Made by a program: the position numbers and the translations under genes. 64,000 nt of DNA from an uncultured delta proteobacterium (GTDB taxonomy: Bacteria; Desulfobacterota; Desulfuromonadia; Desulfuromonadales; JACZKF01): contig CAWFKQ010000006.1 of NCBI GenBank assembly GCA_963816395.1, positions 68,324-132,323 of the forward strand, given 5' to 3'. The notes beneath the pieces are model-generated. The model was not told where the DNA came from, did no database searches, and saw only the letters and a program-made list of their open reading frames with translations. Shown here one piece after another: positions 2,198-42,753 of the stretch; positions within the stretch are counted from its first letter, which is position 1; every line of letters starts with the position of its first letter.

Positions 2198-4300
2198 GTT
2201 TCCGCCACCGGCAGCGTGAAATAAAACGTGCTCCCCTTCCCCAGGGTGCTCTCCGCCCAGATCCTGCCGCCGTGCGCCCGGATCACCTCCTGGACCAGGG
2301 CCAGGCCGAGGCCGATGCCGCCGGGAATGCGCCGGGCGCTGTCGTCCACCCGGTAGAAGCGGGTGAAGATCCTGCCCAGGGACTGGGGCGGAATGCCCAT
2401 CCCCTCGTCCTTCACCCAGATCCTGACCGTCTTCCCCTTCCGCTCCGCCCCGACCGTGACCGTCCCCCCTTCCGGCGAGTACTTGATGGCGTTTGACAGC
2501 AGGTTTTTCATGACCTGCTGCAGGCGCTTGGCATCTCCTGCGCACCGCCGGCAGGCCGGGCGGGCAGTCGAGCACCAGGCGATGCTTTTTCGAAGCGACG
2601 GCGAAAAGGTGCACCGCTTCCTGCAGCAGGTCATGAACCGAAAGGGCTTCGAACTGATAATTCTCCAACTGCGCCTGTAGCCGCTGCAGATCGAGGAAGT
2701 TGCTGATCAGTTCGTTCAGCCGCTCGGTTTCGCGGTGCACGGTTTGCAGGTATTCATGCTGCTGCTCCGGCGGCACCGGGTTTTCCAGGAGGAATTCGAC
2801 GAAGCCGAGCATGGCGGTCAGGGGGGTGCGCATCTCGTGGCTCACTGAGGAGATCATCTCGTCCTTCAGGTGCTCCATTCTCTTCTGCTCGGTAATGTCC
2901 TGGGCGATGTGCACGCCGCCCCACAGCTCTCCCGTCTCATCGAGGAGGGGATAGACCGAGAGGTGGTAATAGCGGTCGCTCTTCGGTTCATAGAGTTCCC
3001 CAACCTCCGGCAACCTGGATTTCAGCATCTGCGCAAACGGGCAGACCTCCTCCGACTTCCTCCAGGCCGAAATGAACCCGGCAATGCTTCCCGGTCAGCG
3101 GGCTCTGCGTTATGCTGTTCAGAAAGGAATGATTGGCCCGGTTCATTTTGAGGATCTTGCCCATTCCGGTCGAGAATGGCGACCGCGTCGGTGATCGCCT
3201 CGAAGGTCTGCGCCCATTCCTCTTCGCTGCGGCGCAGGTTCGCCTCCACCCGCCGCCGATCGGCAATCTCCTGCTGCAGATTGCGGTTGAGGTCCTCCAA
3301 CTCGGTCGAATAGACCAGGGCCTTGCCGGTCAGGGGGCGCAGCAGCAGAAAGATGCCGAAGCCGCCAAGGATCGAGAGGAACGCGGCGACCGCCAGCACC
3401 GAGGCGAACAGCCGATTGACATCGGCGTACAGGTCGGCCTGGTCCATGGTCACCAGCAGGCCCCAGCGGGTATGCCCGACCGGCGCATAGGCGACGATGT
3501 CCGGTTCCCCGTTCTGCTGCGCGCGCCCGCGCAGCAGCCCGGCTTTGCCCGCGGCTGCGGCCTGCAGGGCGGTGCCGTAAAGGGCGATCTCCGGGGCGGC
3601 GTTGTAGACCTCCCGTTCCCCGCGGCGGCCGGGAAAGAAAATTTCCGGTCGGCCGTCCCTGACCGTCCCCAGCAGGGAGTCGCCATTGTAGGGCATGTTC
3701 GTCGCTTCCCAGACGATCCGCTGCAGGTGCGCGATGGAGATAAGGATCAGTTCGAGTGCCGAGGAATTCTCCCTGCTCGCTACTGGATGGGGGCTGCGGC
3801 AAGCAGGTACGGCATGCCGGCGACGACCAGCGGGTCGGAAAGGGAGATCTGTCCAGTCGTCCGCGGGAATGGCTTCCTCCGGTACCCGGATCCCCACCTG
3901 CGTCACCCACTGTCCCTGGCGGTCACGGCAGGTGATCCCGGCGATTTCTCCAAAATCGGTGACGACCGGCAACAGGGCGTCCTGGAGGAGAGCCTGCAGC
4001 CTCTGCCGGGACAGTTTCCCCGCGTAATAGCCTGCCAGGGCGTCGCGGATCGGCTGCCTGTTCGCTACCAGCCGGGCGATGTCGAAGACTCGGGCGAGGT
4101 ATTCCTCGACCCCCAGCGTGCGCGCCCGCGCCAGATGGAGGAGGTTCGTTTTCCTCCGATTCCTTCAGCCGGTTGAAAAAAGGGAGAAGGGAAAGAAACG
4201 ATATGAGGATCAGGGCGGCCAGGGTATAGAGGACGGCATAGGCAACAGTTTTCCGCCGAAGGGATTCCAGCGGATTCTTGTTTCCTTTTGATTTCGGCAT
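2194..4300 (-). CDS. sensor histidine kinase (TM, periplasmic sensor, TM/HAMP, PAS, HisKA, HATPase_c); frame broken at least 5 times in this assembly
   Basis: ORF fragments 3923..4300, 3022..3972, 2988..3266, 2084..3028 and 2194..2634 join into one architecture. SHEMRTPLTAM H-box present. N/G boxes present: NLLSNAIKY, DEGMGIP, GGIGLGLALV. Confidence 0.8.
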
Positions 4301-4462
4301 GAAGACCGCCCAAGGGTAAATTTAAGGTCAATGATCAACTCTAGCAAACAGCGCCGGCGCGGCAATTTCCCAAATGGGGGGAATTGCCGCAGTTGCATCG
4401 GGGAGGAGGATAAAGGATAATAATAAATTCTTACCCATTTGTCTTCAGGAGAATGCATATCC

Positions 4463-5874
4463 ATGCCGCAATTCGCGCCAGGCACCCGCTACAGAATGCC
4501 CGTCCGGACGGTTCTGACCTCGGCCGGCCCGCTGCCGGAGGTGACCGTCCAGGGCTGGGCCCGTACCGTCCGGCGAAGCAAGGAAGTCACCTTTGTCGCC
4601 CTTAACGACGGCTCCTGCTTCGCCTCTCTCCAGGTCGTCCTGGAGCCTCGGCTGGCGAATTTCGAAGAGGTCTCGAAAGCCGGCACCGGCGCCTGCCTGG
4701 CGGTGACCGGCGAGCTGGTTCCCTCCCCGGCCGCCGGCCAGCAGTGGGAACTCCGGGCGCGGCAGGCCAGCCTGCTCGGCGACGCCGACCCCGACTATCC
4801 GCTGCAGAAAAAGCGCCATACCCTGGAATACCTGCGCACCATCGCCCACCTGCGCCCCCGCTCCAACACCTTCGGCGCCGTCTTCCGCCTGCGCAGCGCC
4901 CTTTCCTTCGCCGTGCACCGCTTTTTTCAGGAGCGCGGCTTTCTGCACGTCCATACCCCGATCATCACCGCCAACGACTGCGAGGGGGCCGGGGAGATGT
5001 TCCGGGTGACCACCCTGCCGCCCGCCGGCCCGCCGCAGACCGACAGCGGCGCGATCGACTGGGAGCAGGACTTCTTCGGCGAGAAGACCGGCCTGACGGT
5101 CAGCGGCCAGCTGCAGGGGGAGCTGTTCGCCACCGCCTTTTCCGACATCTACACCTTCGGCCCGACCTTCCGCGCCGAGAACTCCAACACCAGCCGGCAC
5201 GCCAGCGAATTCTGGATGATCGAGCCGGAGATGGCCTTCGCCGACCTGGCGGCCGACTGCGCCCTGGCCGAGGAGTTTCTGCGCTATCGTGGTCCTCTAC
5301 GCTCTGGAGCACTGCGGCGAGGATCTGGCCTTCTTCAACGAGCGCATCGAGCCGGGGCTGATCGGCAAGCTGGAGACGCTGGCCCGGGCCGAATTCCGCA
5401 CCATGACCTACACCGAGGCGGTGCAGCGGCTGCAGAAGGCGGGGCGCAGTTTCGAATTTCCCGTGGAATGGGGGCTCGACCTGCAGTCGGAGCACGAGCG
5501 TTATCTGACCGAAGAGGTGGTCGGCGGCCCGGTCTTCGTCATCGATTACCCGGCCGGCATCAAGGCCTTCTACATGCGCCTCAACGAGGACGGGCGGACG
5601 GTGGCGGCGATGGATCTGCTGGTGCCGCGGGTCGGGGAGATCATCGGCGGCAGCCAGCGCGAGGAACGCCACGACGTGCTGGTGCGCAAGATGCGGGAGA
5701 GCGGCATTCCCCCGGAGAGCCTGTGGTGGTACCTGGACATCCGCCGCTGGGGAACCTGCCCGCATGCCGGCTTCGGCCTCGGCTTCGAACGGCTGCTGAT
5801 GTATCTGACCGGCATGGAGAACATCCGCGACGTCATCCCTTTCCCGCGCACGCCGGGGAACGCCAAGATTCTGA
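4463..5874 (+). CDS. asnS: asparagine--tRNA ligase (two apparent frameshifts, near 5287 and 5865)
   Basis: ORFs 4439..5893 and 5289..5951 join. Class II motifs [21 protein letters not shown] and GFGLGFERL present. The canonical C-terminus PGNA-x-F-stop is recovered by a 1-nt shift, giving TGA at 5872-5874. Confidence 0.85.
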
Positions 5875-38180: not shown

Positions 38181-39571
38181 GCAGGAAGCGACTGAAAACT
38201 ATTTTTATGCCGGCTCTTGTGGCCCTCCTGCTGCTGACGGCAGGTTGTCTGCCCGACCTGGCGCACCGGGAGCCTTCGGATCTGAAACGGATGCCGCAGG
38301 AGCCGCTGGCCTACCTCGATCCGGCCACCGCCCGGCAGCCGCTCCTGGCGCTCGAGCAGCAGCAGGCAAGGGCCGCCGAATTTCTGGAGCGGTTCTTTCT
38401 TGCCTGGCACACCGAGGCGCCGCTGGAGAGCACCCGCCATCCCTTCTGGGCCATCGACTGGCTCGGCGAAAATACGGCGTTCGGTGAAAACCTCCGCCCG
38501 GTGGGACCCGCGCGGCTCCAGGAGCTGATCCGTCTGGCTGGCCGGGAACTCTACCCGAGCCTTAATCGACGGGCCATTACCGTGCGCCGTTGCGACCTGC
38601 GGGCGCTGCCCACCAATCGCCCATTCTTTAACGACCCCCACGAGGCGGGAGAGGGTTTCCCGTTTGACCTCCTGCAGCATGCCGCCCTGGCTGCCAATAC
38701 CCCGGTGCATGTGACGCACCAGAGCGCGGACGGCACCTGGGTCTTCGTCGAAACTTCCCTGGCCTACGGCTGGATCCCGGTGACGGACCTTGCCTGGGTG
38801 GATGATACATTTGTCCGGGCCTTCCAATCCGGCCACTACCTGGCCCTCACCCGCGATCAGGTGCCGGTTGACGATACGGGGGGAATTTACCGTTTCCGCG
38901 CCGGAATCGGGACGCTCCTCCCTGTGCGCGGCACTGCGGCCGGGGGATACCAGGTTCTGCTCGCCGTTGCGGACAAGGACCGACAGGCGCTCCTGACCGA
39001 GGGGACGATCCCCTTCGAGCGCGGGGAGATCTTTCCCCTGCCTTTGACCCGCCGGCGCCTCGCGGACCTGGCGGAGCGCATGGTGGGCCAGCCTTACGGT
39101 TGGGGCGAGAGTTTTGCCGACCGGGACTGCTCGGCCACGATACGTGATCTGTTCGCTCCCTTCGGCCTCTGGCTGCCGCGCAATTCTTCCCAACAGGCCC
39201 GCGTCGGGTTGGTGATCCCCCTCTCCGACCTGAGTCCCCGCCAGCGGGAGCAGCGTCTGCTCGCGGAGGGGATCCCGTTTTTGACGCTGGTACGGCTCCC
39301 CGGTCACATCATGCTTTACCTGGGAGAGCACGAGGGACGTGCCGCGGTGCTGCACACCCTATGGGGACTGCGCACCCGAACTCCCTGGGGCCGGGAAGGG
39401 CGCTGGATCGTCGGCAAGACAGTGATTACCACCTTGGAACCCGGTCTGGAGCGGACCGGTCTCCTGGTCAGGATCGGCAATCTGCGCGATCGTATTGAAA
39501 GCATGAATATCCTGGCTGTTTCGAACAATGCTGTGGATCATGACCATGAAGATCATGCAGCAAATCATTGA
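38177..39571 (+). CDS. NlpC/P60 (C40) peptidase lipoprotein with SH3-like domains
   Basis: Lipobox LLTAGC. C-terminal DCSATIRDLF...GHIMLYLG catalytic Cys/His pattern. ATGA overlap with the deaminase stop. Confidence 0.8.
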   Translation: MSRKRLKTIFMPALVALLLLTAGCLPDLAHREPSDLKRMPQEPLAYLDPATARQPLLALEQQQARAAEFLERFFLAWHTEAPLESTRHPFWAIDWLGENTAFGENLRPVGPARLQELIRLAGRELYPSLNRRAITVRRCDLRALPTNRPFFNDPHEAGEGFPFDLLQHAALAANTPVHVTHQSADGTWVFVETSLAYGWIPVTDLAWVDDTFVRAFQSGHYLALTRDQVPVDDTGGIYRFRAGIGTLLPVRGTAAGGYQVLLAVADKDRQALLTEGTIPFERGEIFPLPLTRRRLADLAERMVGQPYGWGESFADRDCSATIRDLFAPFGLWLPRNSSQQARVGLVIPLSDLSPRQREQRLLAEGIPFLTLVRLPGHIMLYLGEHEGRAAVLHTLWGLRTRTPWGREGRWIVGKTVITTLEPGLERTGLLVRIGNLRDRIESMNILAVSNNAVDHDHEDHAANH

Positions 39572-39696
39572 TATTCAACGTTCCGGGCTACCCTCTCCAT
39601 TTTCTCACCACCGACCGCACAGCCGACGGTCACGCCCTCGGTTTCATAGTCGACCAAGCGATCCTAAAGATCGGGGAATAAAAGGGGGAATAAAAG

Positions 39697-39745
39697 GGTC
39701 AAGCTTGACAAAAGGAATAAAAGGGGTCAAGCTTGACAAAAGGAG
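39697..39745 (+). repeat. two direct copies of the palindrome-containing repeat GGTCAAGCTTGACAAAAGGA (left flank of the Y1 transposase)
   Basis: Copies at 39697-39716 and 39725-39744, embedded in GGAATAAAAGGG reiterations. Confidence 0.85.
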
Positions 39746-39766
39746 ATTTCATCCTATTCTTGTCCC

Positions 39767-40723
39767 ATGCCACGTAAACCTCGACTTCATTACCCCGGAG
39801 CCGTTTACCACGTAATTCTTCGCGGCAATAGCGGGCAGGATATATTCTTCGATGCGGGCGACCGCACACGTTTTTTCCTGCTGCTGCAGGAAAGCGTTGA
39901 ACGTTTCGGGCACCGTGTCCATGCCTTTTGCCTGATGACGACACACCTCCATCTGGCAATCCAGGTGGGGGATATCCCCCTCTCCCGCATCATGCAGAAC
40001 ATCGGATTTCGTTATACGCAGTTCATCAACAGGAAATATCGGCGAACCGGCCATCTATTTCAAGGGAGGTACAAACCGCTACTGATCGATGCCGACACCT
40101 ACCTGTTGGAGTTGATCCGCTACATCCACCTTAACCCTGTCAGGGCCGGAATGGTATCTCAGCCGGAAGAGTATCCCTGGTCCAGCCATTGCAGCTACTT
40201 AGGGGCTGCCCCCAGGCCGCCATGGTTGACTTTTGAATGGGCGCTGGCACAGTTCGCAGAACAGAAAGGCCTGGCTGCCGAGCGATTCAAGACGTTTGTA
40301 GATGGCGGGATGGGAGAGGGACACAGGAAGGATTTCCACCGGGGCTCCTTCGAAGGTCGTGCCCTCGGGAATGATACATTTATCGATCAGGCATTACTAA
40401 AGGCCGAAGAAAATAAACGTGCCGGCATCACCCTGCCTCAGGTCATTGAAGCTGTCTGCTCGACATATCAACTGAGTACTGCGGAATTGTGCGCTCCGGG
40501 AAAAGCGCAGCCGGCCGCTGAGGCAAGAGCTGTCACCGCCTTCTTTGTAAGGAATGCCGAGTCTCTACTCCTGCGCGATCTGGCGAGTTTTCTAAACAGG
40601 GATCTTTCAGGCCTAAGCCAGGCAGCACTTCGGATCAGGCGGCGATCTGGCGAGGATGATCAATTGCGGATTACACTGGAGAGGGTATCTGAAAAGGTAA
40701 GAATCTCCTTTTGTCAAGCTTGA
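39767..40723 (+). CDS. IS200/RayT-like Y1 (HUH) transposase with a DnaA-C-like HTH tail
   Basis: AVYHVILRGN, CLMTTHLHLAI (HUH), RTGHLFQGRYK and YIHLNPVRAG. C-terminal 90 aa resemble DnaA domain IV. Confidence 0.8.
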   Translation: MPRKPRLHYPGAVYHVILRGNSGQDIFFDAGDRTRFFLLLQESVERFGHRVHAFCLMTTHLHLAIQVGDIPLSRIMQNIGFRYTQFINRKYRRTGHLFQGRYKPLLIDADTYLLELIRYIHLNPVRAGMVSQPEEYPWSSHCSYLGAAPRPPWLTFEWALAQFAEQKGLAAERFKTFVDGGMGEGHRKDFHRGSFEGRALGNDTFIDQALLKAEENKRAGITLPQVIEAVCSTYQLSTAELCAPGKAQPAAEARAVTAFFVRNAESLLLRDLASFLNRDLSGLSQAALRIRRRSGEDDQLRITLERVSEKVRISFCQA

Positions 40724-40725
40724 CC
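40705..40725 (+). repeat. inverted copy of the flank repeat (CTCCTTTTGTCAAGCTTGACC), right flank, interrupted by the intron
   Basis: Reverse complement of 39725-39745. Overlaps the last codons and stop of the transposase gene. The match continues at 42638-42642. Confidence 0.85.
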
Positions 40726-41201
40726 GTACGCAGTAACAGTTGAATATCTAACGGGTTTAAGTCCCGTCCGAGGAGTTGTCCGTTCGCCTCGGTAGCTCAA
40801 GGGAGCGGCGCTCTGGCAACAGGGGGTCGTAAGTTCCCAATTGGCAAAGCAACAGGCCGTAACGCAAGTGAACCTAGACGTAGCCTCGTAATTGTGATGA
40901 AGATGCCGACCCTGTGGTCAGAAGGGGAAGGCCGTCGTTACAGACTCTGAAAACGGAAACAGTCTGTGTAATCTTCCGGGGTAGCAGGGGCGGCATGTTG
41001 TGGAAGATATTTCAGCCCAGTGCTGGAGACCCGTTGCGGCGATGTTGAGGAACATCAACCGGCGCGTATAAGGCAACGAAATCGCGTTGGGCCGTATCGG
41101 GAGTCGGAGGGGTCCATAGTACCGTTTGAGGAGCTGGGACAACATAACCCGCTTCGAGGGAAGGGACCCTGCTTTGTTCACGCAACCGAAGTGCAGAGGA
41201 G

Positions 41202-42554
41202 ATGGGGATTGCAGCGATGCTAACAACCCCGGAAACAATCAGGACGCTACAGAGGAAGCTCTATCGCAAGGCCAAGCAGGAGCCGGCCTGCCGCTTCCAC
41301 GCCTTGTACGACAAGGTCTACCGGGCTGATATCCTCAGTCACGCCTATGCCCTTGTCCGCGCCAAGAAGGGTAGCGCCGGCATTGACGGCGTCACCTTCG
41401 AAGTCATCGAGGCAAACGAAGGGGTCACCGCATTCATTGCGGAGCTGGAAGAAGCACTGAGAAACAAGACGTACAAACCCGATCCCGTCAAACGGGTCAT
41501 GATACCAAAGAGCGACGGCAGTCAACGTCCTCTCGGTATTCCGACTATCCGGGACCGGGTGGCGCAGATGGCCACAAAGTTGGTCATCGAGCCGATCTTC
41601 GAAGCGGATTTCTGCAAAACATCCTACGGATTCAGACCGAGGAAGTCAGCCCATGACGCAGTCGATGATGTTTCCAAGGCCATGAACACCGGCTACACCG
41701 AAGTCATCGATGCCGATCTTTCTAAATACTTCGACACCATTCCTCACGCCAATCTCATGACCGTGGTCGCCGAACGCATCTGCGACGGCGCGATCCTGCA
41801 CTTGATCCAGATGTGGCTCAAGGCGCCGGTTATGGAGGAGGACAAGGACGGGACGAAGCGGAATATCGGCGGCGGCAAGGGTAACTGCAGAGGGACGCCG
41901 CAGGGCGGGGTCATCTCACCGTTGCTGTCCAATCTCTACCTGCACCTACTGGACAGGATATGGGAGCGGAAGAACCTGCAACAACGGCTGGGCGCCCGCA
42001 TCGTCAGATATGCGGACGATATTGTCATTCTCTGCCGGCGAAGTAAGTCCGAGCAGGCCATGGCGGTTTTGCGGCAAATACTGGAGCGATTGGAACTAAC
42101 CCTGAACGAGGCAAAGACCAAAATAGTCAATGCTTACAAGGGACAGTTCGACTTTCTCGGATTCACGATGTGGATGGGAAAAAGCAGAAGGACGGGCAAT
42201 TACTACTCGCACGTCCAGCCGTCGAAAAAGTCCCTGAAGGCGATCGCGGGCCGCGTAACTGAACTCACAAAGAGAGTGAAAGCGCCCGTGCCGATTGAGA
42301 GGATTGTGAAGGAAGTAAATGCAGCCGTTCGCGGTTGGGTCGGTTACTTTCATTTCAAAAATTGTAGCAAGACGCTATCTCATGTGCGACAGCACGTGGA
42401 AGAGCGGCTACGAACACACCTTCGCAAGCGGCACAAGATCAAAGGCAGGGGGGCCGGGTTTGCCCGGTTCGGCAGCCGAATCCTCTACGAGAATTACGGG
42501 TTGTATAAGGTGCCGACAACAGCGGGTTGGACAAGGGCGCATGCCCTGCGGTGA
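41202..42554 (+). CDS. group II intron reverse transcriptase/maturase (no endonuclease domain)
   Basis: RT blocks GIDGVTFE, RPLGIPTIRDRV, FRPRKSAHDA and YADDIVILC. Maturase RGWVGYFHF. 450 aa. Confidence 0.92.
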   Translation: MGIAAMLTTPETIRTLQRKLYRKAKQEPACRFHALYDKVYRADILSHAYALVRAKKGSAGIDGVTFEVIEANEGVTAFIAELEEALRNKTYKPDPVKRVMIPKSDGSQRPLGIPTIRDRVAQMATKLVIEPIFEADFCKTSYGFRPRKSAHDAVDDVSKAMNTGYTEVIDADLSKYFDTIPHANLMTVVAERICDGAILHLIQMWLKAPVMEEDKDGTKRNIGGGKGNCRGTPQGGVISPLLSNLYLHLLDRIWERKNLQQRLGARIVRYADDIVILCRRSKSEQAMAVLRQILERLELTLNEAKTKIVNAYKGQFDFLGFTMWMGKSRRTGNYYSHVQPSKKSLKAIAGRVTELTKRVKAPVPIERIVKEVNAAVRGWVGYFHFKNCSKTLSHVRQHVEERLRTHLRKRHKIKGRGAGFARFGSRILYENYGLYKVPTTAGWTRAHALR

Positions 42555-42566
42555 AGAACATCGGAA

Positions 42567-42637
42567 AGCCGTGTGCGGGAGAACCGCATGCACGGTTTGA
42601 TGAGGGGGGGCAGGGTGACACCTGTTCTCTACTCTAC
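42567..42637 (+). ncRNA. group II intron ribozyme domains V and VI
   Basis: Domain V: AGCCGUGUGCGG-GAGAA-CCGCAUGCACGGUU with the AGC triad and a 2-nt bulge. Domain VI: GAGGGGGGGCAGG-GUGACA-CCUGUUCUCU-A-CUC. Confidence 0.7.
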
Positions 42638-42753
42638 CCTTTGGGCCCATGCAGAATTGACACAATTTCCGTGCTTCGGATAGTATTCAAGTCAGTAATA
42701 CAAAAAGGAGCACCGGTCAGCGAGGTGCTCGGGATGGAGGGAAAAACCTGCCG

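Follow-up and report, generated by a model that had tools for sequence, protein, structure and literature searches.

The window analysed here, a 64,000-nt stretch of contig CAWFKQ010000006.1 from an uncultured delta proteobacterium, holds a group II intron that lies inside the terminal repeat of a second mobile element, a RAYT-like transposase gene bordered by inverted repeats. Our preferred explanation, to which we assign a probability of about 85%, is that this is a complete and apparently functional intron lacking an endonuclease, and that it retrohomed by base pairing into the right repeat of the RAYT-like element. Judging from its sequence, the intron is probably active. The arrangement is an ordinary nesting of one mobile element in another: group II introns inside other mobile elements are well known (PMC3552965), and an intron–REP association has been described for 2 of 9 copies in Pseudomonas putida (PMC1525189). 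We found no paper in which group II introns are connected with RAYT terminal repeats specifically, and regard an intron in a RAYT terminal repeat as an ordinary extension of the known concept.

The intron occupies positions 40726-42637 of the forward strand (1,912 nt) and is complete by Rfam and by homology. Within it, the Rfam model RF02005 (group-II-D1D4-6) matches domain I at 40758-40991 (77.8 bits), while RF00029 matches domains V-VI at 42564-42637 (52.3 bits), with its last base falling on the proposed 3' end. Together with an intact intron-encoded protein, these matches bear out the initial annotation of this window, which had read a group II intron at these very coordinates from the letters and open reading frames (ORFs). 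The termini are 5' GUACG and 3' CUAC, which we counted as agreeing with the consensus GUGYG...AY, with one departure at the 5' end. No further copy of the intron was found elsewhere in the 64-kb window. For comparison, relatives were sampled from 33 loci obtained in a scan of a genome collection and from the contigs of close protein relatives. In most of these loci the blastn alignment begins with intron nt 1, and where the 3' end is included it terminates at nt 1912, with unrelated flanks; more than 25 related copies support the boundaries in this way. By the window sequence alone the junction can slide by 1 nt, there being a C on both sides; we set it at 40726/42637 because homology and the GU...AY rule place it there.

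Taking the intron out restores the repeat. Upon removal of 40726-42637, CTCCTTTTGTCAAGCTTGACC is joined to CCTTT, which reproduces 39720-39745 exactly in reverse complement. The 26-nt perfect match that the initial annotation had described is therefore exact as far as it goes, but the true perfect match is longer, namely 29 nt (39720-39748), and lies within an imperfect inverted repeat of ~40 nt. The reconstructed exon junction reads ...GTCAAGCTTGACC-CCTTTGGG (...TTGACC-CCTTT...). Sites identical to the reconstructed one exist naturally in the empty state: ...TTGTCAAGCTTGACC/CCTTTTG in locus L044 (over a longer stretch, ...AATCTCCGATTGTCAAGCTTGACC/CCTTTTGATCC), ...TTGTCAGGCTTGACC/CCTTTTACT in L045-48 (with TTGTCAGGCTTGACC/CCTTTTA in L045), and ...GTCAAGCTTGACC/CCTTTTTTT at one of the two right ends of L043. 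The same architecture, a gene flanked by inverted repeat copies, is found in L043-L048. Homology, repeat restoration and natural empty sites thus agree, and the intron boundaries, as originally proposed, are correct to the nucleotide. Likewise, the suggestion that the intron sits in the right inverted repeat, here of a RAYT-like element, is supported, and the natural empty sites of L043, L044 and L045-48 confirm the reconstruction of the empty site.

The non-coding RNA without the ORF measures 559 nt (Table 1). Domains I-III take up the standard group II fold, with 139 pairs of which 43 show compensatory changes (RNAalifold, 19 copies), and domains V-VI were aligned by Rfam, in line with the six-domain structure of a group II intron. 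Domain V reads AGCCGUGUGCGG-GAGAA-CCGCAUGCACGGUU, and its loop stands in the context GCGG-GAGAA-CCGC. The candidate alpha and alpha' elements are both invariant across the copies and hence carry no covariation signal. A YrlA-like Rfam match at 40721-40832 is weak (E = 0.61; 19.7 bits, with a gathering score of 69) and was taken for a chance hit.

Table 1. Features of the intron and of its host element in the window (positions of the 64,000-nt stretch; strand left empty where none applies).
Feature	Position	Strand	Basis or remark
Direct repeat, three units, GGAATAAAAGGGG/T	39675-39726	+	Repeat search; overlaps the outer side of the left repeats
Distal left terminal-repeat copy, GGTCAAGCTTGACAAAAGGA	39697-39716		Minus strand has the same intron target, empty
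Proximal left inverted repeat	39720-39759		29 nt (39720-39748) match the reconstructed right end perfectly as its inverted partner
Y1 (HUH) RAYT-like transposase, 318 aa, ORF intact	39767-40723	+	Pfam, NCBIfam, homologues
Inner part of right repeat (5' exon)	40691-40725		Palindrome 40713-40724; IBS1 TTGACC 40720-40725
Domain I	40731-41025	+	RNAalifold, 19 copies
Candidate alpha loop UCCGUU	40774-40786	+	In domain I
Internal loop, sole EBS2 candidate	40889-40898	+	In domain I
EBS1 GGUCAG	40916-40921	+	Terminal loop of hairpin 40905-40932; covariation
Candidate alpha' AACGGA, terminal loop	40947-40960	+	Complementary to UCCGUU
Domain II	41026-41105	+	RNAalifold
Domain III	41109-41170	+	RNAalifold
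Reverse transcriptase and maturase X, 450 aa, intact, in domain IV	41202-42554	+	Profile matches
Domain V	42567-42597	+	AGC triad 42567-42569; 2-nt bulge 42588-42589; 5-nt loop GAGAA 42579-42583
Domain VI	42601-42637	+	Bulged branch-point A 42631, seventh base from the 3' end; Rfam alignment
Outer 5 nt of right repeat, CCTTT	42638-42642		Displaced 1.9 kb by the intron

The evidence for target choice by base pairing comes from exon-binding site 1 (EBS1) and its partner in the exon, intron-binding site 1 (IBS1). GGUCAG, within the terminal loop GUGGUCAGA (40914-40922), complements the last six bases of the exon, UUGACC. The initial annotation had proposed looking for a partner of TTGACC; it was found, and it covaries. 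Over 20 copies, 92.5% of the cells in the EBS1/IBS1 alignment are paired. At IBS1 position -3, an A-U pair in 10 of the 20 copies is replaced by U-A in the other 10 (TGACC with GGUCA, and TGTCC with GGACA, respectively), and at position -5 the copy with CGTCC and GGACG carries a C-G pair. None of 500 shuffles scored as high, and with the partner shifted by 1-3 columns the paired fraction fell to 21-43%. The resulting pairing covers 5-7 bp and covaries. The switch between A-U and U-A at position -3, which separates sub-lineages, represents a natural experiment on retargeting. On the other side of the insertion point, the first base of the 3' exon is a C at 13 of 14 junctions in one set and at all junctions in two further sets; C42638 is probably IBS3, paired with a single-base EBS3.

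The same pairing bears on what the palindrome in the repeat can do. The stem GGTCA-AGCT-TGACC named in the initial annotation had to be corrected, as this 14-mer occurs on neither arm; the true palindrome is the 12-mer GTCAAGCTTGAC (40713-40724), and the intron begins 1 nt after it. As single-stranded DNA, the repeat folds into no more than a 4-bp stem (-1.7 to -2.3 kcal/mol), whose stability does not exceed that of shuffled sequence (z-scores -0.2 and -1.5), and a consensus scan called no terminator at either the window repeat or the empty site in L044. Because IBS1 is the 3' arm of this stem, the stem must open for the intron to bind, whereas in the class C mode the reverse applies.

The intron-encoded protein is intact. 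It scores 137.9 bits for RVT_1, 58 bits for GIIM and 406 bits for TIGR04416 (cut-off 300), and the motif YADD is present in its reverse transcriptase. Profile searches detected no HNH, endonuclease or DNA-binding domain, and the protein ends 32 aa past the GIIM match. More than 8,000 homologues were retrieved at E <= 1e-30; among the matches listed, the top ones are 80-88% identical, and those with a name belong to the Desulfuromonadales. The intron therefore belongs to a large, mostly unannotated family whose named close relatives come from Desulfuromonadales and related Thermodesulfobacteriota, and for which the present analysis provides nucleotide-exact boundaries, a domain map and an exon-binding site.

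As for the intron class, we compared the protein pairwise with one class F (g3) protein, a Mesorhizobium relative thereof, one class D, one g1 and two class C proteins. It is 49.6% identical to Ni.ha.I1 (class F, g3; Nitrobacter hamburgensis plasmid 1) and 50.7% to the Mesorhizobium protein related to Ni.ha.I1, as opposed to 33.9% for the class D protein, 34.3% for Sr.me.I2 (g1), and 32.9% and 35.1% for the class C reverse transcriptases E.r. and GsI-IIC. The 5-nt loop of domain V is a trait of IIE/IIF introns, and the position of the alpha' candidate on a terminal loop of domain Id3 would be one of classes E and F (PMC3753933). Together, these features suggest a class F-like intron with an IIB-like RNA and E/F RNA traits, whose nearest characterised relatives appear to be of class F. 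By its hosts (Geobacter sp. M18, Pelobacter carbinolicus), subgroup g4 is a candidate assignment. Among the Rfam models, class D introns map to D1D4-2 and class F/g3 introns to D1D4-4; no intron of known class matched D1D4-6, the model found here, and the literature gives this model in a table only. The best sequence matches in the PDB are class C reverse transcriptases (7uim, 190 bits; 6ar1, 185 bits), with no class D, E or F structure among the matches. One further class F-like intron was noted on an E. coli IncY plasmid (locus L035, CP057937, 40609-44883); its protein is 45.7% identical, its RNA matches D1D4-4, and it lies between ssb and dGTPase genes of this P1-like plasmid.

The transposase of the host element matches Pfam Y1_Tnp with 41.7 bits (cut-off 23) and NCBIfam REP_Tyr_transpos with 69.6 bits against a cut-off of 80, shows readable HLH and RYIHLNP motifs (HUH, Tyr), and ends in a DnaA-C-like helix-turn-helix (Bac_DnaA_C, 24.3 bits, below cut-off). 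Homologues of 318 aa with 75-82% identity occur in other genomes with an uninterrupted right end, and the closest of them (82%, 77% and 75% identical) are all empty. In the window, the last codons of the gene and its TGA lie within the right repeat, and the stop precedes the intron by 2 nt. The insertion left the transposase ORF untouched, and moved the outer CCTTT of the right end 1.9 kb away in the DNA, which may impair that end of the element. The terminal repeat matches the window three times, against 0.01 matches expected, two of these being the direct copies on the left side (39697-39716 and 39725-39745); no dispersed copies were found in the other ~61 kb. A scan of metagenome contigs for the exact 19-nt repeat gave six hits, none of them by a transposase or an intron and none with similarity beyond the pattern, and these were taken as chance.

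Several further observations concern this element. The left palindrome contains a -35-like TTGACA (39733-39738), with a -10-like TATTCT 16 nt downstream, just before the ATG at 39767. From its sequence, the terminal repeat may double as promoter or operator of the transposase, and the DnaA-C-like helix-turn-helix could bind the palindrome. Outside the left terminal repeat, tandem direct repeats were seen in three genomes, with GGAATAAAAGGGG three times in the window, GGGGCACAA four times in L044 (~2900-2960) and GGAGTCAAATA twice in L066 (~415-445); their position is kept between the genomes, while their sequence varies. The island formed by transposase and intron (39500-42700) has 49-57% G+C, as opposed to ~63-66% in most of the window, a contrast to be expected of imported mobile DNA. 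In L043, a second, truncated 3' part of a transposase (2337-2640, aa 223-318, 71% identity) has its own intact right repeat and shares a 2.96-kb contig with the full copy.

Filled and empty copies of this repeat type, which the initial annotation had recommended to look for, do exist. Besides the empty sites in L043-L048, the same type of repeat is filled, at the identical nucleotide, in at least three other loci, L049, L066 and L012. L049 holds the closest relative (88% protein and 87% nt identity), inserted after ...AATCTCCGTTTGTCAAGCTTGACC/ at the same nucleotide, with upstream sequence unlike the tail of the window transposase. In L066, the intron is bordered as ...AATATCCGAAAGTCAAGCCTGACC/intron/CCTTTTATT; this locus has an inverted partner of the repeat ~125 nt upstream and lacks a transposase gene. 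The intron of L012 adjoins GGTCAAACGGAGACTTGACC, with an inverted copy ~250 nt upstream, and the repeat differs from that of the window. A fourth case is L025, where an 85-nt remnant of domains V-VI, followed by CCTTGTTTG, directly continues a RAYT-like gene with 27.6% identity (aa 1-241). On the other hand, many copies of the family occupy sites without an inverted partner or a hairpin. For one intron protein, P0013, there is a copy at the repeat in L066 as well as one in L065, where the site is unrelated and contains a similar 13-mer, and P0014 occurs on seven contigs in several different sites. The terminal repeat is hence a preferred, not an exclusive, homing site for a sub-lineage, and the intron family also lands in many unrelated sites with a matching IBS1. 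If the repeat family were dispersed in these genomes, it would offer the intron many pre-made homing sites.

A more far-reaching proposal, which we put forward only tentatively and hold to be rather less probable than its opposite, is that a class F-like sub-lineage has specialised on the outer end of RAYT-type terminal repeats. It would insert at a fixed nucleotide by the palindrome, possibly at or near the cleavage boundary of the transposase, and would travel together with the transposase element and the gene-less derivatives of it, which it might also modulate. This would amount to a three-layer nesting in which the repeat family of a DNA transposon serves as a set of dispersed homing sites.

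Some of the related loci deserve mention in their own right. L066 (443-594 and 2507-2518) contains a gene-less miniature of ~170 bp with two inverted repeat copies and the intron in the right one; this looks like a MITE (miniature inverted-repeat transposable element)- or REPIN-like derivative of the transposase element, and the doublet hints that non-autonomous copies exist. In L025 (563-1556), the RAYT-like gene has been fused by deletion to the intron remnant, and positions 4001-4729 contain another intron 3' fragment. L002 (3767-5421) is a dead copy, in which an internal deletion of 250 nt (intron nt 167-416) removes the EBS1 region as well as domains II-III and leaves the ORF in place. 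L058 and L059 (junctions 1024 and 2935) share the 5' exon and intron and differ in their 3' exons, which reflects recombination among the intron copies or else a chimeric assembly across the repeated intron.

The preferred explanation, retrohoming by base pairing, translates into the following scenario. The intron would have retrohomed into the right terminal inverted repeat, on the top strand, its target being chosen through RNA-DNA pairing of EBS1 (40916-40921) with IBS1 (40720-40725). Its RNA would reverse-splice into DNA that is transiently single-stranded at the replication fork, where the nascent strand would prime cDNA synthesis, as known of replication-fork priming in endonuclease-lacking introns (PMC4424553). 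The two identical minus-strand targets in the left repeats are empty, which is weakly consistent with insertion into the lagging-strand template. Once in place, the sense-oriented intron would be transcribed from the transposase promoter and spliced from the 3' untranslated region of the transcript. Such co-transcription and splicing are likely because the intron lies in sense orientation, 2 nt past the stop, and the left palindrome is promoter-like. Splicing would restore the repeat in the RNA.

Several findings weigh against this explanation or parts of it. The 5' end, GUACG, differs from the canonical GUGYG, although GUACG or GUUCG is conserved across the intron family. A second pairing, EBS2/IBS2, sought with the one variable internal loop (40889-40898) and the upstream exon, gave no signal above that of mismatched locus pairs (10.75 versus 10.2 +/- 2.4). 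In the window copy its best version has 5 bp, two of them G-U (UGAUG with UGUCA at -14 to -10); candidates of 8 bp in L008 and of 6 bp in L004 and L007 exist, with an overall signal as in mismatched pairs. Besides, a conserved GTCAAG at -13 to -8 has no assigned pairing partner; AAUUGGC, considered as an EBS2 pairing with GUCAA, was rejected because it is part of a structural helix with compensatory changes of its own. Class E and F introns are reported to splice without a need for EBS2 (Nagy et al., PMC3753933). The window RNA matches D1D4-6 and Ni.ha.I1 matches D1D4-4, and the class F-like call, made from pairwise identities, is a tentative one. The GC skew of the + strand is slightly positive across the window (0.00-0.065), a weak signal that would fit insertion into a lagging-strand template. 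Finally, public sequencing runs contain <=6% of the words and thus none of them covers this genome; splicing and present-day mobility are predicted from the sequence.

A very different mode of targeting had been suggested by the initial annotation, which drew an analogy to class C introns: here the intron would recognise the folded REP-like stem-loop, as class C introns do with terminators or attC hairpins, and use a short IBS1. The insertion 1 nt past a palindrome, the missing endonuclease domain, the class C structures among the best PDB matches (7uim, 6ar1) and the intron–REP association in P. putida (PMC1525189) would fit such a mode, as would L012, whose intron abuts the hairpin GGTCAA-N8-TTGACC. 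That the reverse transcriptase is small, the endonuclease missing and the total size ~1.9 kb had been observed correctly, yet classes C, D, E and F are all small and devoid of an endonuclease domain (PMC4424553; PMC3552965), for which reason these traits do not point to class C. We would caution against reading them in this way. The analogy does not hold in other respects: the protein is 33-35% identical to class C proteins versus ~50% to class F, the 6-bp EBS1/IBS1 pairing covaries and needs a melted stem, the stem is weak (4 bp) and obtains no terminator score, and domain V combines an AGC triad with a 5-nt loop in a non-coding RNA of 559 nt, whereas class C introns have a reduced domain I, no EBS2, an EBS1 pairing of 3-4 bp and a ribozyme of ~400 nt (PMC3753933). 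At the junction, most of the sister copies show neither an inverted repeat nor a hairpin, the very outcome that the initial annotation had named as speaking against hairpin targeting. We therefore judge this mode to be highly improbable.

Two other accounts concern the history and the present state of the insertion; both appear unlikely, and about equally so. The recurrence in the repeat might reflect a single ancestral entry into a RAYT-type repeat, with the composite spreading by descent or transposition, instead of a site preference. In all empty copies CCTTT remains at the outer end of the element, and in principle the composite could thus move as a unit; the filled copies in the window, L049 and L066 carry related introns (85-87% nt identity). 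However, the filled hosts differ: the window has a full transposase gene, L066 a ~170-bp gene-less inverted-repeat pair and L012 another repeat. All of the closest transposase relatives are empty, each filled copy has an intron whose EBS1 matches the IBS1 at its site, and P0013 is also found in the unrelated site L065. Alternatively, the insertion might be recent but by now immobile or unable to splice, a fossil that disables the right end of the element. A single copy in the 64-kb window, the non-canonical GUACG and degenerate relatives such as L002 (250-nt deletion) and L025 (domain V-VI remnant) would be in line with this. Against it stand the intact 450-aa ORF with YADD and X domain, the conservation of all paired regions and catalytic motifs in the window copy, and the fact that GUACG is the family norm. 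Compared with these accounts, we favour retrohoming by base pairing of a functional intron. The insertion then joins the known examples of group II introns for which other mobile elements serve as safe places to land, a choice that recurs in independent loci.

How does this system compare to those already known? With class C introns it shares the small size, the missing endonuclease domain and the position beside a palindromic repeat. It differs from them in a long and covarying EBS1 (not 3-4 nt), a larger domain I and another domain V loop, in an insertion point at the foot of the stem with IBS1 inside the stem, and in sister copies that occupy non-structured sites. The host resembles REP/RAYT (REPIN) systems, in that a Y1 HUH transposase gene lies between inverted short palindromic repeats and a gene-less doublet exists (L066). 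Unlike in these systems, the transposase possesses a DnaA-C-like helix-turn-helix in addition and falls short of the NCBIfam cut-off for RAYTs, and the other ~61 kb of the window are free of dispersed repeat copies. RmInt1, a class D intron of Sinorhizobium meliloti, is likewise ~1.9 kb long, lacks an endonuclease, homes into an insertion sequence and relies on replication-dependent priming (PMC4424553), whereas the present protein has ~34% identity to a class D protein and class D RNAs match D1D4-2.

Closer parallels exist with class E and F introns. Like the ribozymes Cl.be.I2, Pe.th.I2 and Ge.ur.I1 (PMC3753933), the window intron has a compact IIB-like RNA (559 nt, within their 450-700 nt), a 5-nt domain V loop, an alpha' candidate on the terminal loop of Id3 and a clear EBS1/IBS1 pairing next to a dubious or dispensable EBS2; those ribozymes have been characterised biochemically, in contrast to the present intron, which is known from sequence alone. 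With Ni.ha.I1 and class F it has in common an RT-X protein of ~440-450 aa without endonuclease (49.6% identity), an IIB-like RNA and a nearly identical length (1,912 nt here, 1,911 nt in Ni.ha.I1), whereas Ni.ha.I1 and its relatives from Mesorhizobium and the E. coli plasmid match D1D4-4 and the window intron matches D1D4-6. Residence in another mobile element is a further likeness: Ni.ha.I1 is located in an IS4 transposase, B.th.I3 and Ma.sp.I2 in transposases and Sr.me.I2 in ISRm25 (PMC3552965, Table S2). Unlike for Ni.ha.I1, the host in the window is of the Y1/RAYT type, and the intron has settled in its terminal repeat instead of a coding region.

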